From Octopus vulgaris (taxonomy: Eukaryota): a stretch of DNA of 64,000 nt. The notes below the pieces were generated by a model that worked only from the letters and a program-made list of their open reading frames with translations, did not search any database and was not told the DNA's origin. Positions 13,124-50,199 of the stretch are shown piece by piece. A program made the translations under genes and the position numbers. The DNA lies in assembly GCA_951406725.2 (NCBI GenBank), contig OX597818.1, positions 51,274,001 through 51,338,000 on the forward strand. Direction: 5' to 3'. Each line of letters opens with the position of its first letter. The stretch's first letter is position 1.

Positions 13124-16100
13124 CTAGAAACAGACAGAGAATTTGCAGGAAGTCTCCGTTAGACATCTTACAGGTAACAAAGTATAAAGTGGAGTACACA
13201 AAGCTTTGAGTACATTTTGTAATTTTGAGTCCAATTCAGTGTAGTCAAAAAAATCTTTGCAGAAGAAAACCTTAATTGTTGGAATATCATCCCAAGTTGT
13301 ATTCATGTCTTTGACTAAGTTGTTAATAACAGTAAAAAGTTCGCTTAACATTGTGTCTTTTGAAATGGAATCAGTTGAGAATGTATCAGTTATTAAAACA
13401 GAACCTTTAAAGCCTGAGATTTTACTGCATTCATGAATGCGATATTCTAAATGGAGCCTGCCACATGTAATGGTATGTTCCTGCTTTTTGATATCACTTT
13501 GTTCAGTTAAGACTGCTCTACAATCCCATTCAATATGAGCATTCTTGGGTAAACCAGATAAAACAACAAACTGTATTATTGGACTCAGTTCAGAACTAAA
13601 AGCATCTTCATCCAAGCACAACATTCGCTCCCATTCATCTTTCGCCACTTGAAGGAATGTTTGGTCTCTAATATAACAAATGCACAAAGCAATATTCTGG
13701 AAAGTACATTCTCCATGCATAGCTTTTAGTATTCGGTGTACGTGTCTTAAAGATAGTCTGGCTTCAGTTTTAATACAAAACGGTTCTAGAAGCTTCATCG
13801 TTGCTGGACAGAGCCCTATTTGTCCAGCAACAAAAAGGTCCGTGTTAATTTTCACTGCTTGGCTATACGGTCCTATGTTTGCTGGAGCCCAGTGTGAAAG
13901 GCTTTGCACGTGCATGGAATGCCTATCAGGATGTTGTATTTGAGAGCTACCTGCAACATCCATCTTCAAAAGTACATTTGACGGTAAATCCATTTCGACA
14001 CAAACACGAACCGGAGGGTTAGGTCCAAAATATTTCTTATAAATACTATTAATCACACTATAAGTTTCCATATTTTTTACATATAAATGTACAGAGTAAA
14101 TATTTTTGAAAGTAGGAGAAATTTTACAGAGAGACAGTGATTCTTTTAGAGAACCCATCACTTGCTGGCTTGCTGCTTCTACATCTCTTCCACAGCCAAC
14201 AAGGTTAGCAATCCAAAAATATTCATTGGATTCTTTGATTAAAGGCGGTTTAATTTCCACTGAAGCAAGATTTTCAGCAACACGGTTCTCTTGTGATTTA
14301 TCAAACTGCAAGCTCTCTTGCTCTTCAACAGAAAAGAGTTCATCAATTAGGAATTTACTGGATTTCATTGACAAATCTGCCAGAGACTGATCTATACCAT
14401 CTTTTACTTCGAGATGCAGAGACTTGAAACTTATATAGCCTACTGGGGCAAAAGCATCATCCGAATGGCATACAATTTCACTATCATCAACGAGTATTTT
14501 TTTCTTGAACAATGGGCAATCAAGCGTGAAGGTTTCATACTCTCCGCCTTCACCACAAACATTTAATCCATACTTTTGGTGAAGCTGGATCATACTTGGA
14601 TAAATCTCTTTCAACGAAAGTCTAAGGTGTTTCTCCGGCATCAGTCCCATAGCTGCGACTTTGATAATAATTGCATCTACTTTTGCATCGATCATTTCAG
14701 CAAGGAGTTCTTGTTGGTCTCGCCGCCACAGATAAGCAAGTACGGTCAGTCCAAGTCGACTACAGACGTTTTCGACACGAACACGTTGGTAATCTGAAAG
14801 TATAGCTCCCACCGATACGGCATCTACTTCTTCAACTTCTTCCATTACCAATTTTAAGAGATTGTACAAGTCTTCCACTTCATCTCCTTCGGTCAGGTCA
14901 TAATCTCTGTCTGTTCTCTTGGAGTTTCCTTCTATGGTTCTCCGGAACAATGGTACTTCCATAGCTTTACCATACAAATCAATAGCATGATGACCAACAG
15001 TCTGTAATGAGAAACAGTAGCTATGTTACAAAGAGTTTTGTGTGTGTGTGTGTGTGTGTAATCATCATCATCATCATTTTAAGGACCACTTTTCTATGTC
15101 TGCATGGGTCAGAGAGAGTTTATGGAAATACATTTCTTATAGCTGGATGCCCTCCCTGTTTCCAAGCAAAGTAATATTTTCCCATAACCAACATCTTCTC
15201 ACAGAATATTAGAAATGAATGCCACTGCTTGTATGATTGTCACAATAATTTTACAATTAAGTAACATCTTAAAAACACAAACACAGAGTTTATCATGGAA
15301 TAATAAATGATCAGTGCGTTGAACAAAAATATCTTGTGGTATTTTGTTCCCCCTTAGGTTATGTACTCCTCTCTCCCTTTCGGAGAGGCACTGAGCACCT
15401 ACACACACATGGCAGTAACTTCCGCCTACCGAATTCAATCACAAAGCTCCGGTTGGCTCGGGGCTACAGTAGAAGACACCTGCCCAAAGTGCCACGCAGT
15501 GGGACTGAACCCAAAACCATGTAGCTAGGAAGCAAGCTCCCTAACCACACAGCCATGCCTGTGCCTACTACCATTACGCTCAATTAACTTTGCATTTTGT
15601 CCCTTAGGAAGTCGATAATAAAACTACCAGACCAAGTCCAGCAAGCCAATATAATCAACTAAAATCTTTTAAATGTAGACCCAGCATGGCCATGATCCAA
15701 CGACTGAAACCATTAAAATCATCATCATCATCATCCAGTGCTTTCAATCCAGGTTTTGTCCCCATTAACAGGGGTGTCCAGATCTGCCATGATGCCATAG
15801 CAACCGAGGTAGGCAGGTGCAGCACACCCCAACCTTTGGGCTGGCTGGCTGGCTGGTGCCCATTCTCCTTTGCTATCCTGAGGCTTTTTTGGAGATGGAT
15901 TTTCTATGGGGAGCATGCCCCTGCTTACCCCCAATTTCAGTTTCTAGACATGAGTGGTCCCAAGACCAAGGCCTCTCTACCACAATTTTTAAGAAATGTA
16001 GTGGAAAACTAGCTCAGGAAGGCAGGGATGCTACGACTGGAGCCTAGTGCAGCCTCCTGGCTTCCCAGACCCCGGTCGAGCTGTCCAACCTATGCTAGCA

Positions 16101-17556
16101 TGGAAAACAGACGTTAAACGATGATGATGATGATGAAAAAGGCTGCAAAACAGTTGTAATCCTAAGAATGTCAAGTGATTAAATAAATACATACACCTCT
16201 TATACCTCCTGACTCTTTATAGATATATATATATATATATATATATATATCAAATCAATATCATTTAATGTCCATTTTCCAAGCTGGCATGGGTTGGACA
16301 GTTTGACTGAAAACTGGGGACCTGCACCAGGTTTCAATCTGATTTGGCATAATTTCTATGGCTGGATGCACTTCCTAACATCAACCACTCCAAGAGTGTA
16401 GTAAGCGCCCTTCATATGAATTCCAGAGCCCTCCTACCAGAAAAAAGAAGTTAGAAAAATATTAATTGTATGTAATACTCTTCTGTATTAAAATCAGATG
16501 CTAAACTACTCCTCCCACTCTTTTTCTGACTTCTACACAGGAAGCACAACTACATCAGACAATTAATTAATTACAACTGTACTATTATTTAACACAGTCA
16601 AATTTGACACAATTACATTTAGTCATACTAATTAGGTGAATACACTGCTATCCTCACTAACCCTTCCTTACTGTCTCTTTATTATTATGTCCAGAATTGA
16701 ACTAGATTCAAACCAATAAGAGAGCCTCTATGTGTCTTTTGCCCTGCAAGAAACTGCAGCAGAGAAGTCACCCTCAAACCACACCTAACTATCTTAATCA
16801 AAAAAAAAAAACATTCAATAAAACTGTGTAAGGCATGCTGTATTTCAAATATATATTTATAAATTTGCAGTATAAGATATGAATTCAGAGAATTGTGTGG
16901 TTATCACAGAAAGCTCCTCTAATGGACTTAGCTATCAGACCACAGAAAATTAATACAGAGAGGTGTAATGCAAAGTGTCCTTGCAGCTGAAATGCAGAAA
17001 ATCCAATCAATGAAATTACTTCATGAGAAGTATATAAACCATAAAAAGTCAGGAGGCATGAGAGGTGAATCTATTTATTTAACCACTTGACATCATGAGG
17101 ATTACAGCCGATTTTCCGCTTTCTTAATATAATAATAATTTCAGTGTATAATAAATTAGGTTTTCATGTTAATGTAAACATATAAACATTACTTTATTCC
17201 ACACTGAAATTATCATTATGGCACATAAAAAGCACTATCCGAATATGGCTGATGCCAGCGCCACCTTGACTGGCTTCTGTGCCGGTGGCACGTAAAAAGC
17301 ACCAAACAATCATGGCCGTTTCCAGCCTCCCCTGGTACCTGTGCTGGTGGCACGTAAAACACACTCACGGAGTGGTTGGTGTTAGGAAGGGAATCCAGCT
17401 GTAGAAACTCTGCCAGATCAGACTGGAGCCTGGTGCAGCCATCTGGTTTGCCAGTCCTCAGTCAAATTGTCCAACCCATACTAGCATGGAAAACAGACAT
17501 TAAACATATTAAACATTAAACAGACATTAAATATATATATGTCATGGAAAACAGAC

Positions 17557-17829: not shown

Positions 17830-19507
17830 AATCAACATCATTTAATGTCCATTTTCCAAGCTGGCATGGGTTGGACAGTTTGACTGAAAACTGGTAAACT
17901 GGGGACCTGCACCAGGTTTCAATCTGATTTGGCATAATTTCTATGGCTGGATGCCCTTCCTAACACCAACCACTCCAAGAGTGTAGTAAGTGCCCTCCAT
18001 ATGAATTCTTGTAGATATGACACAAATAAATTGTCCGACGTTCCAAATTGTCACCATGATTTTCTTTTCACTCGCATCCACATATTCTACATATTTTGCG
18101 TGTCAACGGACCCCGTTTGTGAGATCCACAAAGTTCTCATGGTACACAGTCACTTCGTGGGTGTAATGTCGATATCTTCCCTTTCATTCTTATTTACTTT
18201 TTTAAACACACTAAACTAAAAAAAATTACCTAGTACTCTTTTACTTGTTTCAGTTATTTGACTACGGCCATGCTAGAGCACCGCCTTTAGTCGAGCAAAT
18301 CGACCCTAGGACTTATTCTTTGGACGCCTACTACTTATTCTATCGGTCTCTTTTGCATCGGTTGTCAAGCGATGTTGGGGGACAAACACAGACACACAAA
18401 CATATACATATATACAACAGGCTTCTTTCATTTTCCATCTACCAAATCCACTCACAAGGCTTTGGTTGGCGTGAGGCTATAGTAGAAGAGACTTGCCCAA
18501 GGTGTCGCGCAGTGGGACTGAACCCGGAGCCATGTGGTTGTTAAGTTACGGGGACGTAAACACACCACCATCGGTTGTCAAGCGATGTTGGGGGGACAAA
18601 CACAGATACAAATATTTATACACACGCATACATATATATATATACATATATACGACGAGCTTCCTTCATTTTCCATCTACCAAATCCACTCACAAGGCTT
18701 TGGTCGACCCAAGGCTATAGTATTATCACGTGTATATATATTATTTCACTTGTTTTAGCCACTTGACTGCGGCCATGCTGGAACACCGCCTTAAAGGTTT
18801 TTGTTGAAGAAATCGACCCCAGGACTTATTCTTTGTAAACCTAGTACTTATCCTATTGGTCTCCTTTGCTGAACTGCTAATTTGCGAGGGCGTAAACACA
18901 CCAGCATCGGTAGCCGAGGGATAGACACATGCACATGAATATATACATACATATATATACGACGGGCTTCTTTCAGTTTCCGTCTACCAAATCCACTCAC
19001 AAGGCTTTGGTCGGCTCGAGGCTATAGTAGAAGACACTTACCCAAGGTGCCACGCAGTGGGACTGAACCTGGAAGTATGTGGTTGGGAAACAAGCTTTCT
19101 TACCACACAGCCACCCCTGCGCCTATGACATGTGTATAACATACGTGAACACGTGCACAAGGAAACTGTACGGTCGTCCTGCGAGAAATATGAAACGAAT
19201 AACCTTAAAATCATAGCTTCTTGTTTTAAATAATGAATATCAAAAACAGAAAAAAAAGAGATAAATCGGGATGGTCATGGCTAGAATTCCATTGATTATA
19301 AGAGTTTCCGATCGGAGCTGTCTTAGGTTTAAACAACACCACGTGCACTATAAGAAAGAAGTTTACCTGAAACATATAACTATCCATTTCGTCTACATCA
19401 GGTGGTCTTAAATTCGCCAAGGCGACAATTTCGTGGCCTTCGGCCACACATTGCATCATATTATAGGTACTGTCTTTACCACCGCTGATCAAAGCGACAA
19501 CCTTCAT
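13124..19507 (-). CDS. DPH6: Diphthine-ammonia ligase with C-terminal RidA/YjgF-like domains; exons 19507-19367 and 15001-13124; 672 aa
   Basis: MKVVALISGGKDS PP-loop; DSYMFQ|TVGH joined by a phase-0 GT-AG intron; GAILSDYQRVRVENVC, CGEGGEYETFTLDCPLF and HVQSLSHWAPANIGPYSQA motifs. Confidence 0.95.
18001..18165 (-). pseudogene. Merlin (ISXO2/IS1595-like) transposase fragment in the DPH6 intron
   Basis: Manual translation YTHEVTVYHENFVDLTNGV / TQNM*NMWMRVKRKSW*QFGTSDNLFVSYLQEF (one frameshift, two stops) matches the Merlin motif YxHxxVxHxxNFVDPxTGxHTQxIExxWxxxK...YLxEF. Confidence 0.7.
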
Positions 19508-21239: not shown

Positions 21240-21498
21240 AATTGACCAAAATTGAGAGTATGATAGAAGAAGGCGTGTTCTTCATTCCGTAGATGAAAAA
21301 TTCAAATAGGACCATGTTAACACCAAAAATTATTTACATCTAAAAGGTGCCTTTTTTTTCTATGAAAATCCCTATTTTTTACGATTTTTTTACTGCTGTG
21401 TTGCCATTTTTCGGTGTATTTCAATCAGAAAAATGTTCACTTAAAGAAAATAAGCTACATAATGCAAAAATCCGGGCAACAACGGGCAATGCTGCTAG
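21240..21498 (+). mobile_element. Non-autonomous Helitron, 3' part
   Basis: Homologous (reverse complement) to 28129-28426; ends CCGGGCAACAACGGGCAATGCTGCTAG|T. The 5' end was not identified. Confidence 0.7.
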
Positions 21499-21557
21499 TA
21501 CTAAATAAATATATTAAAAAGCTTTAGCTTTAAATGTTTGCAATAAAATTACGATGC

Positions 21558-21629
21558 CTCCCCGGCGGGGAATCGAACCCCGGTCTCCCGCGTGACAGGC
21601 GGGGATACTTACCACTATACTACCGAGGA
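21558..21629 (-). tRNA. tRNA-Asp(GTC)
   Basis: 72-nt TCCTCGGTAGTATAGTGGTAAGTATCCCCGCCTGTCACGCGGGAGACCGGGGTTCGATTCCCCGCCGGGGAG; intact cloverleaf and A/B boxes. Confidence 0.95.
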
Positions 21630-21712
21630 CAGCTGATGAAACCTTTTACTTATAAATATCAAATAAATATATTAAAAAGTTTTAGTTTAAAATCTTTACA
21701 ATAAAATTAAGA

Positions 21713-21731
21713 CGCCGGGCGATGTTGCTAG
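21713..21731 (+). mobile_element. Second Helitron-type 3' terminus
   Basis: CGCCGGGCGATGTTGCTAG|T, matching the terminus at 21480-21498 and at 28129-28146 (-). Confidence 0.55.
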
Positions 21732-21739
21732 TGATAATA

Positions 21740-23188
21740 GGTACTTGTCAATTGTCGTGGTCCCGGTTTTGCACACGCGAATTCGCGCGCGCGCGCGCCA
21801 GACGTAGGTACTCGATACTCGAGATCCTACGAGGTGACTTGCGCATGCGCAGTGCAGAATTCGCGCGTGCGCGTTAACCCCCCCCTAAAAAAAAAGGTGT
21901 TGGATTTCACTAAAAATATATGTGTGTGTGTGTGTGTATATATAACATTTTCAATTTTACACAAAAAAATTACATAGTCGCTTTCCTCGCGGATTTACAG
22001 AGAAATGAATTAATTACTATTTTACAGAATAAAATTAATGAATTAATTATATAAATTAAATAATTCTTGAAAATTAATTAATATTAATAATATTTTTTGA
22101 ACAAAGTAAATAATTTATAAAACTTGGTTAATAATTTTTTTTACACAAACGCGAACGTATATAATTTGTGAAACTTTTTTTTTTTTACAGACGTATATAA
22201 TTTGGTAAACTTAATGAATTAATTTCTTCTCATCATCATCATCGTTTAACGTCCGTTCTCCATGCCAGCATGGGTTGGACGGTTCGACCGGGGATCTGGG
22301 AAGCCAGAAGGCTGCACCAGACTCCAGTCTTATCTGGCAATGTTTCTACAGCTGGATGCCCTTCCTAACGCCAACCACTCCGAGAGTGTAGTGGGTGCTT
22401 TTTACATGCCACGGTCGGATTGGTGCCAGTCGAGGCGGCTCTGGCATCGGCCACGATTCGGATAGTGCTTTTTACGTACCACCAGTCCAGGGGTCCTGGC
22501 ATTTGCCGGGTGCCACACTTGCCCCAACATGTCTTCGCAAGCAAAGGGGGTTGGCATGGGTGCCTGTCGTGGGATGAGGTTCGATATCAACTTCGCTTGC
22601 CTCAACAGGTCTTTGTGTATAAATGTATAAATTTTTCGCACTAAATTCTTTCCGTAGAATTTATAAAAAAACGCGCAAAATTATTCCGTAGACTTTATCA
22701 AATTAAAAAACGCAAAATTAATATATTTTTTGAAATTGCAAATTATTTAGAATATAAAACAAATTAAGTTAAATTTTAAAAATAAATGTCATATACTTAT
22801 ACTCTGTAAGGTGCTGTGTTCACACTTCAATTTACTATTTTCTAGAAATGTTGCTTTTCTAATTGAAACAATTTTTCTCAATCTCCATTTAAAAGTCCAT
22901 AATGCCTCTTGAGCCATATCAAAATGAACAACTTTGAATTACCCGGTGGTGGTGTGAGGTTCTAATTTTTTTTCTGATCTCTCTTTGCCCCCTCTTTATC
23001 TCAGTTGTTCATTCAGCTAATATTTAGAAAAATTTTCGCGCCCAATTTTTGTTGTCGCGGGAAAAGATGAACGATTTAAAATAAATATATCTTAATTGTA
23101 GTGTGAGAAAGTATATATATTCTGATGACAAAATATATTATCTTTCAAAAACATCCCAAATTTATAGACTATATCGTGTAGGTTTAAG

Positions 23189-23223
<35 letters not shown>

Positions 23224-24605
23224 TATAGATATATATATACATATATAGTAGAGAATGAAACATCTTTCATCTGTCTCCCCACCACACCTCCATCTAGGGG
23301 GGGCAAAGAGAGATCAGAAAAAAAATTAGAACCTCACACCACCACCACCACCACCGGGTAATTCAAAGTTGTTCATTTTGATATGGCTCAAGAGGCATTA
23401 TGGACTTTTAAATGGAGATTGAGAAAAATTGTTTCAATTAGAAAAGCAACATTTCTAGAAAATAGTAAATTGAAGTGTGAACACAGCACCTTACAGAGTA
23501 TAAGTATATGACATTTATTTTTAAAATTTAACTTAATTTGTTTTATATTCTAAATAATTTGCAATTTCAAAAAATATATTAATTTTGCGTTTTTTAATTT
23601 GATAAAGTCTACGGAATAATTTTGCGCGTTTTTTTATAAATTCTACGGAAAGAATTTAGTGCGAAAAATTTATACATTTATACACAAAGACCTGTTGAGG
23701 CAAGCGAAGTTGATATCGAACCTCATCCCACGACAGGCACCCATGCCAACCCCCTTTGCTTGCGAAGACATGTTGGGGCAAGTGTGGCACCCGGCAAATG
23801 CCAGGACCCCTGGACTGGTGGTACGTAAAAAGCACTATCCGAATCGTGGCCGATGCCAGAGCCGCCTCGACTGGCACCAATCCGACCGTGGCCGTTGCCA
23901 GCCTCGCCTGGCACCTGTGCGGGTGGCATGTAAAAAGCACCCACTACACTCTCGGAGTGGTTGGCGTTAGGAAGGGCATCCAGCTGTAGAAACATTGCCA
24001 GATAAGACTGGAGTCTGGTGCAGCCTTCTGGCTTCCCAGATCCCCGGTCGAACCGTCCAACCCATGCTGGCATGGAGAACGGACGTTAAACGATGATGAT
24101 GATGAGAAGAAATTAATTCATTAAGTTTACCAAATTATATACGTCTGTAAAAAAAAAAAAGTTTCACAAATTATATACGTTCGCGTTTGTGTAAAAAAAA
24201 ATTATTAACCAAGTTTTATAAATTATTTACTTTGTTCAAAAAATATTATTAATATTAATTAATTTTCAAGAATTATTTAATTTATATAATTAATTCATTA
24301 ATTTTATTCTGTAAAATAGTAATTAATTCATTTCTCTGTAAATCCGCGAGGAAAGCGACTATGTACTTTTTTTGTGTAAAATTGAAAATGTTATATATAC
24401 ACACACACACACACACATATATTTTTAGTGAAATCCAACACCTTTTTTTTTTTTAGGGGGGGGGGGGTTAACGCGCACGCGCGAATTCTGCACTGCGCAT
24501 GCGCAAGTCACCTCGTAGGATCTCGAGTATCGAGTACCTACGTCTGGCGCGCGCGCGCGCGAATTCGCGTGTGCAAAACCGGGACCACGACAATTGACAA
24601 GTACC
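21740..24605. mobile_element. Foldback-type non-autonomous DNA transposon (2866 bp; arms 21740-22992 and 23299-24605; about 305-bp spacer)
   Basis: Near-identical inverted arms starting GGTACTTGTCAATTGTCGTGG; perfect 9-bp TSD GTGATAATA (21731-21739, 24606-24614); no transposase. GG termini and a 9-bp TSD fit Merlin or Mutator. Confidence 0.9.
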
Positions 24606-25079
24606 GTGATAATAATATCAATAGGTCATAATAATGTTATTTCATGCATTTGTTTTGCAAGGTGTGGCTGTGGTGGTTAGGAAATTGCTTCCTAGTCACA
24701 TGGTTTAGTTCCACTGCGTGACAACCCGGGTAAATGCCTTTCAATATAACCCCGGGTTGACTAAAACCTCGTGAGTGGATTTGGTAGATGGAAAATGAAA
24801 GAAATCTGTCACACACACACACATATAGGGTGAAAGGGTTGGTATGTGAAAGCACGTGGTTGGATGTATAAAAAACAAAATAGAAGGAAAAAGCTACAGA
24901 TTTGTATTATATGGTTTAAAAATATATTAAAATCGTCATATTAGGAAAGTAATATAAATGATATAAAACTTTGTGAATAAACAAAATTTCATATCATTTT
25001 CCTAACATGACAATTTTAATATATTTTTTATCATATAATACAAATCTTCTGTAGTTTTTCATTCTGTTTTGTGTGTATA

Positions 25080-26662: not shown

Positions 26663-26900
26663 ATCAAAGATTTAGTCGGCCCGGGGATATAGTAGAGAAC
26701 ACTTGCTCAAGGTGTCACATACTAGGATTGAACCCACGAACCATGTGATTGAAGAAGCAAACTTCTTATCACGTAGTCACGCCTCTACACCTATTCATGG
26801 AGTTTATAAAATAACGACATGAATAAGCAGCAAAAATGAAAGAAAGAGTTTTATATACTATAATTATTTAATATTCGTAAGTAAAAAGTTTCATCAGCTG

Positions 26901-26972
26901 TCCTCGGTAGTATAGTGGTAAGTATCCCCGCCTGTCACGCGGGAGACCGGGGTTCGATTCCCCGCCGGGGAG
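26901..26972 (+). tRNA. tRNA-Asp(GTC), array copy 1
   Basis: Matches the consensus. Confidence 0.95.
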
Positions 26973-27058
26973 GCATCTTAATTTTATTGCAAATATTTTA
27001 AATTAAAGCTTTTTAATATATTTATTTGCTATTTATAAGTAAAAGATTTCATCAGCTG

Positions 27059-27129
27059 TCCTCGGTAGTATAGTGGTAAGTATCCCCGCCTGTCACGCGG
27101 GAGACCGGGTTCGATTCCCCGCCGGGGAG
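27059..27129 (+). tRNA. tRNA-Asp(GTC), array copy 2 (1-nt deletion in T-stem; possibly pseudo)
   Basis: GACCGGGTTCG instead of GACCGGGGTTCG; this could be a homopolymer sequencing error. Confidence 0.75.
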
Positions 27130-27215
27130 GCATCTTAATTTTATTGCAAACATTTTAAACTAAAACTTTTTAATATATTTATTTGGTATTTATAAGTAAA
27201 AGATTTCATCAGCTG

Positions 27216-27287
27216 TCCTCGGTAGTATAGTGGTAAGTATCCCCGCCTGTCACGCGGGAGACCGTGGTTCGATTCCCCGCCGGGGAG
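27216..27287 (+). tRNA. tRNA-Asp(GTC), array copy 3 (T-stem G>T)
   Basis: GACCGTGGTTCG. Confidence 0.8.
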
Positions 27288-27373
27288 GCATCTTAATTTT
27301 ATTGCAAACATTTTAAACTAAAACTTTTTAAAATATTTATTTTGTATTTATAAGTAAAAGATTTCATCAGCTG

Positions 27374-27445
27374 TCCTCGGTAGTATAGTGGTAAGTATCC
27401 CCGCCTGTCACGCGGGAGACCGGGGTTCGATTCCCCGCCGGGGAG
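27374..27445 (+). tRNA. tRNA-Asp(GTC), array copy 4
   Basis: Matches the consensus. Confidence 0.95.
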
Positions 27446-27531
27446 GCATCTTAATTTTATTGCAAACATTTTAAACTAAAACTTTTTAATATATTTATTT
27501 GGTATTTATAAGTAAAAGATTTCATCAGCTG

Positions 27532-27603
27532 TCCTCGGTAGTATAGTGGTAAGTATCCCCGCCTGTCACGCGGGAGACCGGGGTTCGATTCCCCGCCGGG
27601 GAG
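27532..27603 (+). tRNA. tRNA-Asp(GTC), array copy 5
   Basis: Matches the consensus. Confidence 0.95.
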
Positions 27604-27689
27604 GCATCTTAATTTTATTGCAAACATTTTAAACTAAAACTTTTTAATATATTTATTTGGTATTTATAAGTAAAAGATTTCATCAGCTG

Positions 27690-27761
27690 TCCTCGGTAGT
27701 ATAGTGGTAAGTATCCCCGCCTGTCACGCGGGAGACCGGGGTTCGATTCCCCGCCGGGGAG
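27690..27761 (+). tRNA. tRNA-Asp(GTC), array copy 6
   Basis: Matches the consensus. Confidence 0.95.
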
Positions 27762-27847
27762 GCATCTTAATTTTATTGCAAACATTTTAAACTAAAACTT
27801 TTTAATATATTTATTTGGTATTTATAAGTAAAAGATTTCATCAGCTG

Positions 27848-27919
27848 TCCTCGGTAGTATAGTGGTAAGTATCCCCGCCTGTCACGCGGGAGACCGGGGT
27901 TCGATTCCCCGCCGGGGAG
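27848..27919 (+). tRNA. tRNA-Asp(GTC), array copy 7
   Basis: Matches the consensus. Confidence 0.95.
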
Positions 27920-28005
27920 GCATCATAATTTTATTCCAAATATTTTAAACAAAAGCTTTTTAATATATTTATTTGATATTTATAAGTAAATGTTTTCATC
28001 AGCTG

Positions 28006-28077
28006 TCCTCGGTAGTATAGTGGTAAGTATCCCCGCCTGTCACGCGGGAGATGGGGGTTCGATTCCCCGCCGGGGAG
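28006..28077 (+). tRNA. tRNA-Asp(GTC), array copy 8 (CC>TG at variable loop/T-stem; possibly pseudo)
   Basis: GAGATGGGGGTTCG instead of GAGACCGGGGTTCG. Confidence 0.7.
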
Positions 28078-28128
28078 GCAACTTAATTCTATTGCAAATA
28101 TCTTAAACTAATTTTTTTTTACTTAGTA

Positions 28129-28517
28129 CTAGCAGCATAGCCCGGCCTTGCTCGGGTTTGTTTCGACCCTTTAGAATTGGGATTTTTGAAAAATAAAAAT
28201 TTTGCATTATGTAGCTTGTTATTCTCTTTAAGTGAACATTTTTCTGGTTGAAATACACCGAAAAATGGTGACACAGCAGTCAAAAAATCGTTAAAAAAGG
28301 GATTTTCATAGAAAAAAGCACCTTTTTGATGTGAATAACATTTGGTGTTAACATGGTCCGATTTGAATTTTTCTTCTATGGAAGGAAGAGCAAGCCTTCT
28401 TCTATCATACTCTCAATTTTGGTCAACTTGCACTGCAGGGTCTCGGAGGAGATAATGTTAGTTGAAGGCTACCAAACCTGCCATACACAGACAACTTCAG
28501 GTTTATATATAGAGAGA
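28129..28517 (-). mobile_element. Complete non-autonomous Helitron (389 bp)
   Basis: Minus strand reads A|TCTCTCTATATATAAA...CCCGAGCAAGGCCGGG (imperfect hairpin) CTATGCTGCTAG|T: 5'-TC, 3'-CTAG, subterminal hairpin, A|T target, no TSD. Confidence 0.8.
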
Positions 28518-29403: not shown

Positions 29404-30234
29404 TCAAATAAAATGTCACTTTTTTTCAGTGACTTTTTTCCTAATTAAAATTGTCCTTTTTTTTTTTTGTAATTTTCTTTCTGGGCTTTTTTAGTTATGG
29501 CTATTCGCTTCATTGAAGTCAATTTGCCTTTCATCCTTCTAGGGTCGATAAAATAATGTACCAGTCATGACATGAATCAATTCCTATAAAGCATCGTAGT
29601 TTTTGAATGGCATTTTTGCAGTCAGTAGCAGGAGAACCAGCAAAACGCTTAGGTTATTTAAATCGGTAGACCAGCATACGTACACAAGAGCATCCACCGA
29701 CTTTGTTTTCTCATAACTTTCAGAAAAATAGATACTATAATGAAATTTTCTACACATAACTTTCAAATAGAGAAAATTACAATTATATCGGAGTTTGTTA
29801 TGCATATGTTTTTCGGAGGAGAGAGGAGTTTCGAAAAATTCACACGGGATGACTTTGTTTCCTCATAACTTAGAAAATGGATTTTTTTTAAATGAAATTT
29901 TCTTTAAATACCTTTTAGATTGTGTAGCTTACGATTATAGTATAATTTAATGGGAAGAACAAAAAGAAAGGAAGAATGGTGGGCGCATAGACATAAATAC
30001 TAACAAATCACATTCTTTTCAAAATTTCAAGTTTCGTCTTGTAGATATGAATGTAAAACTTTTTACTCTTTTACTTGCTTCAGTCATTTGACTGTGACCA
30101 TGCTGGAGCACTGCCTTTAGTCGGGCAAATCGACCCCCAGGACATATTCTTTGTAAGCCTAGTACTTATTCTATCGGTTTCTTTTGCCGTAATATATTTA
30201 TTTGATATTTGTAAGTAAAAGGTTTCATCAGCTG

Positions 30235-30306
30235 TCCTCGGTAGTATAGTGGTAAGTATCCCCGCCTGTCACGCGGGAGACCGGGGTTCGATTCCCCGCC
30301 GGGGAG
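30235..30306 (+). tRNA. tRNA-Asp(GTC) inside SINE A
   Basis: Consensus sequence with the array-type flanks. Confidence 0.9.
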
Positions 30307-30393
30307 GCATCTTATTTTTATTGCAAATATTTTAAATTAAAACTTTTTAATATATTTATTTGATATTTTATAAGTAAAAGGTTTCATCAGCTG

Positions 30394-30466
30394 TCCTCGG
30401 TAGTATAGTGGTAAGTATCCACCGCCTGTCACGCGGGAGACCGGGGATCGATTCCCCGCCGGGGAG
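30394..30466 (+). pseudogene. tRNA-Asp(GTC) probable pseudogene
   Basis: Inserted A (TATCCACCGCC) and B-box change GGTTCG>GGATCG. Confidence 0.75.
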
Positions 30467-31032
30467 GCATCTTATTTGCCGAATTTTTACGGGGACGTAA
30501 ACACACCAGCATCGGTTGTCAAGCGATATTGGGCGACAAACACAGACACACACACACATATATATACAGTATATATAGACATATATACGATGGGCTTCTT
30601 TCAGTTTCCGTCTACCAAATCCACTCACGAGGCTTTGGTCGGCCCGAGGCTATAGTAGAAGACACTTGCCCAAGGTGCCACGCAGTGGGACTGAACCCGG
30701 AACCATGTGTATGTGTATGTGTATGTATGTGTGCACGCTCACCAATGTGTATGTATGTGTGCACGCTCACCATGTGTATGTATGTGTGCACGCTCACCAA
30801 TATTTTTCACATTAGATTCTGATATAATCGTGATCTACACCACTCGAAAAGTATTTGCAGAAAATTTCGTCAAAAAATATCCGTTTTTTTAGACATTTAT
30901 GAGGAAAAAATTCAGCGGGGGCGGCACAATGACTAGGTACAACCAGGTACATTGAGCAGTAGCCTTAAGATCTCCTATGTCTAGGGGGCCAAATTTTGCT
31001 CTACGTAAGTTTTAACTAGCTCTCAATAAATA

Positions 31033-31510: not shown

Positions 31511-32702
31511 GGTGCAAAGGGCTGTTCCACTTTCCCTTGTAATTATGAATGTAGACTCTGTAGAGAGAGAGAAAGTGAAAACAAATCTAAATTTGGAAAT
31601 AGGCATGTCACATGACAGATGACATGTGATCACAGTAACAAGCGTGAGGTAGGAGTTGTCGGGGTGGCAGAATCAATAAGTAGTCCTCCGTGCTAGAAAT
31701 AGCAACCAAATTTCCCTCAATCACACTTCGCCTTTTTTAAAAAATAGATTTCATGGATCTTGCTAAATTTCTTCCAATCACTTAAATTATTTCAAATTTT
31801 CAACAGAATATTTTCTAAAATATCTGGTGAAAATGTGCAAAAAAAGAAGTTACGTCAGTGTACAAAAATCTGGTGGAAATTTGAAACACTTAGAGTGGTT
31901 GGATGTAATTGAAAAAGATCCGACATATAATAATATACTCAGAGATATATAATGTATGGATGGCCACATCTTTGATCATAGATCAATTTGATGAAAGCTG
32001 TCATTGGGATAAACAAGGAAACAAAACATTGAGCTTAGTGTATCGGTTACCAAGTGTTAAAAATTAATGTTTTTAAGCATGTTATCGTAATTACTAAATT
32101 TAGATATCTGAAATAATTCTTATCAACTTTCAAACGTATGATTTTTAGAGGGGTGGCTGACCCTTGTCTAGGCAACAACCCCCATGCGGTAGCTTTTACG
32201 TGTAGATTTGGGCACTACTATACAATACGGGTCCCGTCAATTTATTTCCATTATCTTGAAAATTTGAAGTGGATTTCAGTACGTGCTTTTATGTGGACCA
32301 ACAAATAATAAAGAAGAGTAGGTGTTCTAAAATCCACAAGGTTTTATAATACTAAGAAAGAGATAGAATCTTGCCAGATTCTCAAAAGGCAAGCTAAAAT
32401 ATTTTCATGAAACTTTAGCAATAAAATCAGCCATTTAAGATATTATTTTAAAGTGTTGTAACATGCAGGCTTCCATGAATTCGATCCTGGAATTTTTAAG
32501 ATCCAAAACCAAAACAGCTGGCAAATAATTTTACTCTATTTGGTAATGCTCTTTCTTCTAAGGGTACAAGGCTTGAAATTACATCAACCCCAGTGCTCAA
32601 CTGGTATTTATTTTATCAACCCCAAAAGGATGAAAGCCAAAGCCAACCTTGGCAGAATATGATCTTAGAAGTGGAAGGAAATGGTGTAAGGCATTTTATC
32701 TC

Positions 32703-33341
32703 AAAGGGCCTCTCGCAGTGAAAGGCTGACTGTATGATGCCTGTGTGCAAACAGCCATGCTACACAGCAGTGAGACATGGGTTGTGACCGCTGAGGACGT
32801 GGGTAGGCTTGTAAGAAATGAAGCTTTGTTGGGTGTGTATTGTCAGTGTGCATACACGACAGAGTGTAAGTGTCTTGAGAGAAAAGTTAGGCATAAGAGG
32901 CATCAGATGATGACTGTGCTGATATGGTCATATGATGTGTATGGATGAGGACAGCTGTGTAAAGAGGCGCTGCACTCTGATGATGGATGGAGCCTGTGGA
33001 AGAGGTAGACCCAGGAAAACATGGGGCAAGGTGGTGAAGCATGGTCTTCGAATGTTGGGCCAAGACTCTTGGTGATATACACTGCTTGAGAAGACCCATC
33101 AAGCAGAGTGAGATCATAGTTGAGGCTAGTGTCACATCAATGGTATCCATGCTGGTGGCACATAAAAAGCACCCACTACACTCTTAGAGTGGTTGGCATT
33201 GGGAAGGGCATCCAACCGTAGAAACCATGCCGAATCAGATTGGAACCTGGTGCAGCTCCCTAACTTACCAGTTTTCAGTCAAACTGTCCAACCCATGCCA
33301 GCATGGAAAGTGAATGTTAACTGAGGATGATGATGATGATG
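32703..33341 (+). mobile_element. 5'-truncated RTE LINE (RT C-terminus plus tail)
   Basis: YDACVQTAMLHSSETW...GRGRPRKTW, then the family 3' tail and (GAT)n. Confidence 0.8.
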
Positions 33342-40730: not shown

Positions 40731-40950
40731 TATACTGTCAACATAACATGACAGTCCCCGTAGCTTTAGGAAGCATTGATGCTTCCTGTCGGCCTTGACA
40801 CATTTCCTGTGTCCTTATATATTTACGAAGGGGAGACAAGCACCCCCAACAGCTAGGCCTGCATCTAGAGACATGCATGTTTCTGGGTCTTGCCCGTCAT
40901 CAGTCTGGAGTAGCAAGGCCTGCTAGCTGAAGATACCTATCTAGACTTCG

Positions 40951-40996
<46 letters not shown>

Positions 40997-41203
40997 GTGA
41001 AGTTTATTCACTGATAACCAAAATTAGAAATATTAAATTTCTAAATGCAAGCCTAGCTGTTGGGGGTGCTTGTGGTCCCCTTCGTAAATATATAAGGACA
41101 CAGGAAATGTGTCAAGGCCGACAGGAAGCGTCGATGCTTCCTAGGGCTAAATAGCGGTGGTGTAATTCCCTTTACGGGACTGTCATGTTATGTTGACAGT
41201 ATA
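40731..41203. mobile_element. Penelope-like inverted pseudo-LTR remnant
   Basis: 40731-40868 is inverted at 41041-41203; contains a hammerhead motif and (TA)n. Confidence 0.6.
40865..40908 (-). ncRNA. Minimal type I hammerhead ribozyme motif
   Basis: CCAGA-CTGATGA-CGGG CAAGA CCCA-GAAA-CATGCATGTC-TCTAG: intact core, palindromic stem III, GUC cleavage triplet; one mismatch each in stems I and II. Confidence 0.65.
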
Positions 41204-47058: not shown

Positions 47059-48530
47059 TCATCATCATCGTCGTCATCATCGTTTAACGTCCGCTTTCCA
47101 TGCTGGCATGGGTTAGACGGTTTGGCTGAGGACTGGCGAGCCTGAAGGTTGCACCAGGCTCCAATCTGATCTGGCAAAGTTTTTACAGCTGGATGCCCTT
47201 CCTAATGCCAACCATTCTGAGAGTGTAGTGGGTGCTTTTACGTGCCACCGCCACGAGGGCCAGTCAGGCAGTTCTGGCAATGACCACGCTCAAAAGGTGT
47301 TTTTTATGTGCTACCTGCACGGGAGTCAGTCTGGCAGCACTGACAACGACCACACTCAAATGTTGTTTTTCACATGCCACCGGCACATGTGCCAGTAAGG
47401 TGACACTGGCAACGATCATGCTCGAATGGTGCCTTTTACGTTCCACTGGCACGAGTGCCAATCAGGCAGTAATGTCATCGGCCACATCAGCAATTTTGAT
47501 TTTGAATTTTTTTTTTTTTTCGCTTGCTTCAACAGGTCTTCACAAGCATAATTTATTGTCCAATGAATGAAAGGTACTCATAAGTGGGCTGGTTACATTG
47601 ACTGACATAGGCCACAGGTTATGGTCTTACTTGGTTTGTTGGGTCTTCTCAAGCACAGCATATCTCCAAAGGTTTCGGTCACTAGTCATTGCCTCGGTAA
47701 GGCTCAATGTTTGAAGGTCATGCTTCACCACCTCATCCCAGGTCTTCCTGGGTCTACCTCTTCCACGGGTTCCCTCAACTGCTAGGATGTGACACTTTTT
47801 CACACAGCTGTCCTCATTCATTCACAACAAACGACCATACCAGCACAGTCGTCTCTCTTGCACACCACATCTGATGCTTCTTAAATCCAACTTTTCTCTC
47901 AGGGCGCTTTCACTCTGTCATGTATACACACTGACATCACACATCCAGTGGAGCATACTGGCTTCATTCGTTGCAAGCTTACACATGTCCTCAGCAGTCA
48001 TAGCCCCTGTTTCACTGCCATGTAGCATGGCTGTTTGTACACATGTGTCATACAGTTTACTTTTTACTCTGAGCAAGAGGCCCTTTGTCACCAGCAGAGG
48101 TTGGAGTTCTCTAAACTTTGCCCAGGTCATTCTTATTCTAGCAGCTACACTTTCAGAGCATCCACTCCCGCTACTAACTTGGTCCCCTAGGTAACAGAAG
48201 CTATCAACTACTTCTAGTTTTTCTCCCTGGAATGTGGCAGAAGTTGTCCTCTGCAGATTTTCAGTGTTTATTGCTCCTGAGCATCTGCCATATGCAAACA
48301 CTATCTTCCCAGTTAGCCTTCCTTTGATACAGCTGCACCTCTTATGTGCCCATAGCTTACACTGGGTACATCTTATGGAGTTTCTACCTATGCCTTTTCT
48401 ACAGACCGAGCAGGGCCAACTACCTGAAGGGATTTGTTTTTTACCTGCCTTCCTACTTATTAGGACTTTGGTTTTAGTTAGGTTGACTTTAAGGCCCTTC
48501 AATTCTAATCCTTGCTTCCACACCTGAAAC
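47059..48530 (-). mobile_element. RTE-clade LINE, longest copy (RT 3' part with Cys/His-rich insertion, repeat-rich 3'UTR, (GAT)n tail)
   Basis: GLKVNLTKTKVL...WPCSVCRKGIGRNSIRCTQCKLWAHKRC...LEVVDSFCYLG...AMLHGSET...GRGRPRKTW is contiguous with the 3'UTR shared by many short copies. Confidence 0.9.
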
Positions 48531-48593
48531 TTTACTACAAAGCCATGCTTGTGCCCATTACTAAAGCTTTGATCAACACATGTGTATATAGTC

Positions 48594-48776
48594 CAGTGCT
48601 TTTCAAACTTTTTGTTCGAGCGGAACCCCAAGGAAACATTCCACTGTGCAATAATTTAATAGTCTTATGCACACATATCTGCACAGGAGAATTAAAAATT
48701 ACTGCCAATTTTAGCAGTTTTGTAACTTCTTGCAGAACCCCTAGACTACTGGCGGAACCCTGGTTGAAAATCACTG
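48594..48776. mobile_element. hAT (Buster-type) MITE
   Basis: CAGTGCTTTTCAA...TTGAAAATCACTG; 8-bp TSD ATATAGTC with central TA. Confidence 0.85.
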
Positions 48777-49540: not shown

Positions 49541-50199
49541 AAAATACAAACTGGGACAAGAACGCAAAACATTTAGAAGACAATACAAAAAACACAGACT
49601 GGTCATTCGAAGCCTTCAATCTTCAGTCAAGAACTGGATCATCCTTGCAATTTCGGCTGATTAATCTTGAGATTGCTCCAATCCGGCCAGCCCCAAGGAA
49701 AACTAAGCTAAGCGCATTATATTCCTTGGAAAAAAGCTTCGAATGTATCGAAAGCTTCGAACAAGGACAGAAAAACGGACGATATTACACGAATATGAAT
49801 ACAAAAATAATACGAAAAAACAATAATAATAATAAGAAGAAGAACAGGACATCACAACAGGCGTCTTTCGACTTAGACGAATTGAACTCAGCTGGCGTGT
49901 TAGGAATGTGCCTTGAGGCAGAGAAAAAAATGTTGATATATCTTCATTCTAAGTTCATAAGTCAGTTAAAGAGCATATTCTATAATTTATAGAGTAGCTA
50001 TTTTTGTACAAGTAATGTAACAATGTTAGAGAAATGCCTTTGGTTTCATATCTAGATGGTTGTTTTTAAAAACAACTTTTGTAGAGAACAGTTATTGCTA
50101 AGAGGAACTCATGTTATGTCTAGATCACGCTAACCATCAAGATATGAAACCAATGGTATTTGTCTAACATTGTTATATTACACATACAAAAAAAAAAAA

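Follow-up and report, generated by a model that had tools for sequence, protein, structure and literature searches.

By which route did two tRNA genes enter the middle of a SINE? Turnover of tRNA genes is fast, and the origin of new copies is usually inferred from synteny alone. The locus described here lies in a 64,000-nucleotide stretch of repeat-rich Octopus vulgaris DNA (the window) and can be read base by base, and its letters point to DNA-level patching that may have delivered a complete, possibly working gene. The first-pass annotation of this DNA had described an array-derived tRNA pair inside a SINE with TTTGCCG on both sides, and the coordinates and the anatomy that it gave hold. Its wider picture, of host genes jumping into a transposon, is not supported, since the SINE is merely the DNA that broke, and random breaks often hit SINEs. 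The locus adds a further templated insertion, a scar of a familiar type, and is not a case of tRNA genes acting as transposons.

ARAGORN and Rfam agree on 11 tRNA-Asp(GTC) genes in the window, eight in a tandem array, one on the minus strand at 21558–21629 and two in the insert, and the Rfam search of the window returned nothing beyond these 11. The insert (30190–30474, 285 bp) covers about 1.8 units of the 158-bp tRNA-Asp array unit and aligns without a break to adjacent array-unit pairs at 94–96% identity. Read on the plus strand, it opens with 45 bp of array spacer (30190–30234) that start at the last T of a spacer T5 run, followed by the first gene, INS1 (30235–30306, 60.4 bits), whose 72 letters are identical to those of the intact array genes, with both the A and the B box intact and a T5 run 9 bases downstream. 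A spacer of 87 bp (30307–30393) with runs of T5, T4, T5 and T4 leads to the second gene, INS2 (30394–30466, 47.2 bits), which is damaged by one extra base (at about 30421) and a B-box substitution (30447) and is followed by 8 bases of trailer up to the insert end. That spacer shows 5–9 differences from each of the seven array spacers and is nearest to the one between A1 and A2. With its array-gene letters, its 45 bp of upstream flank and T5 at +9, INS1 could be transcribed, while INS2 is likely a pseudogene given its inserted base and B-box change. An additional tRNA copy beside an eight-gene array is unlikely to matter much to the animal. As had been argued before, the insert is not a retrocopy of a mature tRNA, for it includes a full spacer, has 45 bp of flank upstream and lacks both CCA and poly-A; with that flank, the whole spacer and a second gene it is more than the transcribed sequence of one RNA, to which a tailless or processed tRNA retropseudogene would be confined.

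Both flanks of the insert are collinear halves of one SINE, of a kind that we take to be octopus-type. The tail-side (3') half, at 30061–30189, shows 71–93% identity to 12 other places in the window and ends in CTTTTGCCG at the left junction, and the head-side (5') half lies at 30482–30709. The strand was set by a B-box-like head, read from the sequence, that points to the minus strand; both halves thus lie on the minus strand and the insert is antisense to the SINE. Of 303 positions compared with the majority of 8 other copies, 14 are different in the host (4.6%), and two of these belong to the junction; the 8 copies themselves range from 2.9 to 12.2% difference. The host is without the last 45–50 bp of its head, in whose place stands a 28-bp minisatellite (30717–30801), and on these letters it is a dead copy. 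It is also seen that the replacement of the head (30709–30801, repeats of 27–28 bp) starts at a CCATGTG common to the SINE. Since SINEs make up 11.6% of one octopus genome according to PMC13282606, insertion into one needs no special cause.

The likely donor lineage is the array of eight tRNA-Asp genes (A1–A8) on the plus strand at 26856–28119, whose genes span 26901–28077; the insert lies 2113 bp away in the same orientation. The spacers A2–A3, A4–A5, A5–A6 and A6–A7 are identical and the edge units are diverged or decayed. The overall pattern is one of concerted evolution, with changed genes at A2, A3 and A8 (Rfam 48–53 versus 60.4 bits). All seven present pairs of adjacent units differ from the insert at 12–18 of 288 columns, and therefore none of them is the template. 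The A at −30 in the insert is common to A1, A8 and the tRNA-Asp copy near 21.5 kb, GG at −14/−13 stands in both inserted units and elsewhere only in the 21.5-kb copy (in none of the 8 array units), and INS1 has G at −24 and T at +31 in common with A1 only. From these alleles we infer that the insert was copied from the lineage of this array before its centre was homogenised and once the SINE was in place; another, related array may instead have been the donor. Birth of the 158-bp unit in place by fusion of the native 3' and 5' flanks was considered, but the homology data do not show it: upstream of A1 a decayed spacer homology extends to about −70 (reached by 1 of 2000 shuffles), whereas beyond the Helitron the flank keeps it weakly (77 of 2000). 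For the same reason we reject a start of the insert at the left boundary of the array itself. That tRNA genes give rise to local copies is not new as such (PMC4981973).

The junctions carry most of the evidence on mechanism. The left TTTGCCG (30183–30189, plus strand) is native SINE sequence and the right one lies at 30475–30481. The motif is common in the window, with 7 matches against 4.6 expected, so that only its placement counts; the chance at a given site is about 4e-5 for TTTGCCG and 1e-3 for GCCG alone. The first-pass annotation had taken the 7-mer as an ordinary duplication, a reading that the letters do not support: its TTT is also the donor's, 8 bases are lost beside it, and there is microhomology at both ends. 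The right junction is complex (30467–30494, plus strand) and reads trailer, then TTT common to donor and target, then GCCGAA, which matches the target, then a second TTT standing for 8 SINE bases, after which the SINE resumes. The lost 8-bp segment, CCGCTAAG, begins 2 bases past the right 7-mer and is kept, with at most a few substitutions, in 6 of the 8 other SINE copies; the few altered SINE bases of the earlier description are the replacement of this segment by TTT. After its gene INS1 reads TCTTATTTTT, in the same register as the first three letters of the right 7-mer, an allele that is found in none of the 8 array units and is absent from the 21.5-kb copy; INS2 reads TCTTATTT after its gene and then GCCG. 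Independent change at that +9 base has a chance of only 0.2–0.5%, and for this reason the donor is taken to have carried the +9 allele and TTT to be common to donor and target. The insert may accordingly end at 30477, inside the terminator, in which case the unambiguous duplication would be 4 bp (GCCG). It had been recognised that the insert spans a Pol III terminator, and missed that it also ends in the T-run of one.

The left join itself is blunt; the donor CTTTT just upstream of the insert equals a target CTTTT that lies 4 bases before the left join (5 bp). This start register is the single best of 159 donor positions for a match to the target end, and at the right junction 13 of 159 positions give at least 3 shared letters. 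In 200,000 random pairs of target and donor breakpoints, a simulation designed after the junction data had been seen, a left match of at least 5 arose in 0.58%, a right match of at least 3 in 1.5% and both jointly in 0.015%. The ATTTTTA that results at the right junction equals the donor letters at the priming site, though only three letters are free. Neither this microhomology nor the third, Helitron-linked tRNA copy at 21.5 kb had been part of the earlier picture. An unrelated indel of at least 3 bp within 10 bp is expected in 2.6% of cases at the window average (7 events in 2709 bp). Moreover, two other SINE copies carry microhomology deletions (8 and 36 bp) that start at the same TTTT/GC site, between GC repeats, so that deletions at the host-break site make up 2 of the 7 larger indels among the 8 other copies (p about 0.013). 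The TTTT/GC site is thus a plausible place for a break in the SINE, and the 8-bp loss becomes less firmly tied to the insertion event because the same site breaks in other copies. The two deleted copies lie near 18357 (36 bp) and 36621 (8 bp) and represent either a hotspot or subfamily variants. Hairpins at the junctions were not significant (folding z −1.2 and −1.5).

We prefer, at a probability of roughly 0.55, microhomology-driven template switching onto the nearby array at a break in the dead SINE, and we regard the insert as a real, moderately old, single-locus templated insertion. A break or a stalled fork in the old SINE would have been repaired by short-homology template switching, with an earlier state of the array, 2–3 kb upstream, as the template. 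The resected right end would have primed on a donor terminator T-run, copied a few bases and switched to the left break end, producing the apparent 7-bp duplication. A second priming on the same T-run would then have allowed 285 bp to be copied up to the next T-run resembling the target CTTTT, and the copied patch would have been joined to the left end, leaving one intact and one damaged additional tRNA gene. Polymerase-theta-like end joining and replication-fork template switching are the candidate machineries. The upstream flank, the spacer, the short distance to the donor, the common strand, the lost bases and the flank copy are all accounted for by DNA patching, and of the routes that the first-pass annotation proposed, capture at the DNA level is in our judgement the likelier. 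The features of a polymerase-theta scar are present, namely a deletion, a flank-templated insert and homologies of 1–3 bp, and the model accounts for every letter of the right junction. According to PMC4490562, small deletions together with inserts templated from the flank and 1-bp homology mark polymerase-theta repair in worm germ cells, and a cycle of annealing, synthesis and reannealing across the break is described for flies as trans SD-MMEJ (PMC5728401). Some points count against template switching. GCCG survives between the CTTTT match and the insert, where simple annealing would trim it, which the model does not account for neatly. Slippage in the T-run could supply the three free letters; should deletions recur at this SINE site, the 8 bases may have been lost in a separate event, leaving a clean 7-bp duplication; no present unit pair is the donor, so that an array elsewhere may have been it; and the insert end coincides exactly with the end of a Pol III transcript.

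Both insert ends lie in donor T-runs, which also suits capture, at the SINE break, of a free fragment or circle of array units that had been excised at T-runs or released when the Helitron-like element facing the array was read through. The +9 T and the GG described above stand in both inserted units and in none of the 8 array units, a pattern expected if one unit was copied repeatedly. In the 21.5-kb copy the Helitron junction of the array is present together with a second CTAG that has a T behind it, and Helitron 3' read-through and circles have been shown experimentally (PMC4778049). Against this, the 5' flanks of the two inserted units differ at two places, one of them agreeing with A1 and the other with the remaining units, which favours two adjacent units over one circle. 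The insert has no Helitron ends (5' TC and 3' CTRR in an A-T site) on either strand (its minus strand starts with TA and ends with ATTA), and nothing would strongly predispose a free circle to insert only 2 kb from where it arose and with its orientation unchanged. We consider capture of such a fragment rather unlikely.

That the insert ends in a T5 terminator, and that this end pairs with the duplication over its first three bases (3 bp), recalls retroposition, in which a LINE reverse transcriptase, RTE being the candidate, would have copied a Pol III read-through RNA by priming from its 3' UUU on a target AAA. In this joint reading, which we hold to be unlikely, the 7-mer would be a target-site duplication and the 8-bp loss separate or a priming scar. 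Targets of tailless tRNA retropseudogenes are described as complementary to the last 2–18 nt of the RNA (PMC5322556), and RTE duplications as 7–15 bp long and T-initial when the RNA ends in T's (PMC6007223). Recent activity of RTE families in an octopus is on record in PMC13282606, and that of RTE and Helitron families taken together in PMC13282606 and PMC8967140. Set against the RTE signature, the 7-bp length and the first T fit, the stretch 30165–30174 is T-rich but broken, and a 5-T stretch is absent 10 bases upstream of the duplication. The human Pol III often passes weak terminators (PMC3141230); yet here transcription would have to begin at a gene lying before INS1 and pass three T4/T5 runs per spacer in two spacers, and the same source reports that in vitro human Pol III did not read through T5 and read through T4 very little. 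Although retroposition works in trans, neither dispersed copy is more than 5.3 kb from the array, and the duplication is not clean, 8 target bases being lost 2 bp past the 7-mer. The tailless tRNA retropseudogenes of PMC5322556 share with the insert the missing oligo-A tail, a target complementary to the 3' end and a flanking duplication; they are, however, single 3'-truncated RNAs, moved by L1 into A-rich targets with a stagger of 8–30 nt, whereas the insert is genomic DNA that holds two genes, the full spacer between them and 45 bp upstream of the first. A switch of template from SINE RNA to tRNA RNA during SINE retroposition is rejected, as the two lie on opposite strands.

Both partners of the junction are repeats, and array reads mis-joined into a SINE during assembly would produce something of this kind. 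A search of sequencing runs for a stretch of this DNA listed 20 holders in 24 rows with word shares of 0.20–0.77, one run at 0.77, one at 0.49 from another study of the same organism and one at 0.38 from a second organism; even the best run thus has only 0.77 of the sampled words, and the shares say nothing on the junctions because junction-spanning words number only 67 of 1291. An artefact is nonetheless very improbable. Against each adjacent unit pair the insert shows 12 or more differences in 288 columns, it has private alleles, 157 of its 255 internal 31-mers are unique within the window, the SINE halves are collinear, and an assembler does not invent a duplicated 7-mer together with an 8-to-3 replacement. 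That we are looking at an old SINE subfamily present in many copies, or at a piece of some larger duplication, is hardly credible: none of the 12 other left-half SINE matches in the window continues into array sequence, the insert is antisense and the head lost, so that this is no source copy, and the exact junction motif is absent from a metagenome collection that probably has no DNA of this animal.

Among known systems, our insert comes nearest to the class 2 templated sequence insertions (TSI/TSIP) of Onozawa and Aplan (PMC5110952). As characterised there, a genomic patch of 70–400 bp fills a break, microhomology and a microdeletion accompany it and poly-A is absent, all of which our insert shares; the patch is copied from another place with the donor left intact, and here too the array is still present. 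The donors in that account are distant and argued to be RNA-derived, whereas the likely donor here is 2–3 kb away; and class 2 insertions are described as without duplication, whereas our insert has a 4–7 bp flank copy that is either a true duplication or templated. Polymerase-theta and trans SD-MMEJ repair, as reported in PMC4490562 and PMC5728401, resembles the insert in its small deletion, flank-copied inserts, 1–3 bp homologies and repeated priming, but the inserts given there are short and originate no more than tens of bases from the break, which a 285-bp patch from kilobases away exceeds. In common with the local and non-local tRNA gene proliferation described in PMC4981973 there are local copies, tandem clusters and decay into pseudogenes; unlike the cases given there, the junction letters are readable here and the target is a repeat of known sequence.

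A different lead is offered by the third tRNA-Asp copy. At the edge of the array lies a non-coding Helitron-like element of 389 bp (28129–28517, minus strand), with 5' TC after A and 3' CTAG before T, by end criteria taken from PMC4778049. Its 3' end points into the array. Twelve bases from that end (the Helitron criterion being a hairpin about 11 bases in) stands an imperfect, weak GC palindrome that folds no better than shuffles do (z 0.29), and the window holds one other, partial copy. The third tRNA-Asp copy (21242–21731, minus strand) stands between two Helitron-like ends, a 5'-truncated element of about 260 bp and a second 19-bp 3' end with CTAG before T, and its gene has the same array-element junction as A8. 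It lies 5272 bp from the array, on the opposite side from the insert, and beside it 9 bases are copied from 24606–24614, a templated junction. In the same neighbourhood we observed an inverted duplication of 1.3 kb (21740–22995 versus 23296–24605, 95.6%) with a 300-bp loop, each arm of which ends in CpG-rich, promoter-like sequence (about 21770–21880 and 24470–24590). On its letters, the 21.5-kb copy records another local event, independent of the first, in which either a Helitron was read through or templates were switched several times in a row, and it is a candidate for Helitron 3' transduction of a tRNA gene. Set beside Helitron 3' transduction as described for Helraiser (PMC4778049), the element next to the array agrees in its TC and CTAG ends in an A-T site, and the 21.5-kb copy resembles such an element joined to downstream array DNA and a new CTAG end; the SINE insert has no Helitron ends and has a flank duplication, of a sort that Helitrons do not produce. 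The Helitron-linked copy may be a better lead than the SINE insert. Perhaps the array acts as a local seed bed, from which an edge Helitron reading into it and the patching of breaks scatter complete transcription units nearby, the 21.5-kb copy being a Helitron 3' transduction and the SINE insert a captured by-product; we offer this combined reading as a tentative suggestion. If it is true, there would be a DNA route for the birth of clustered tRNA genes without retroposition.

In titles and the beginnings of abstracts, mostly of the non-subscription literature, we found neither a report of array-derived tRNA genes inside a SINE nor one of Helitron capture of a tRNA gene. Metagenome and viral collections, in which DNA of this animal is probably not represented, gave 0 matches to the spacer, the SINE motif or the right junction. 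A single locus changes little, and its interest is mild, lying in the one of the two inserted genes that is intact; it would matter if such inserts are common around tRNA arrays or tied to Helitron read-through. More generally, a short flanking direct repeat need not imply retroposition.

Other features were seen in the window. An uninterrupted frame of 633 codons (13124–15025, minus strand) carries diphthamide synthase (PF01902) and RidA-like (PF01042) domains and is an intronless diphthine-ammonia-ligase-like gene, possibly a retrogene. A second frame, of 245 codons (47918–48655, minus strand), has weak C1-domain matches below the Pfam cut-off and is possibly the 5' part of a decayed LINE; in the region of this frame, 47701–48087 has a 74% inverted paralogue at 32702–33061. 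Imperfect palindromes (70–78%) at 24875–25072, 40731–41203, 50001–50192 and 17129–17219 are possibly old MITEs or fold-back remnants.
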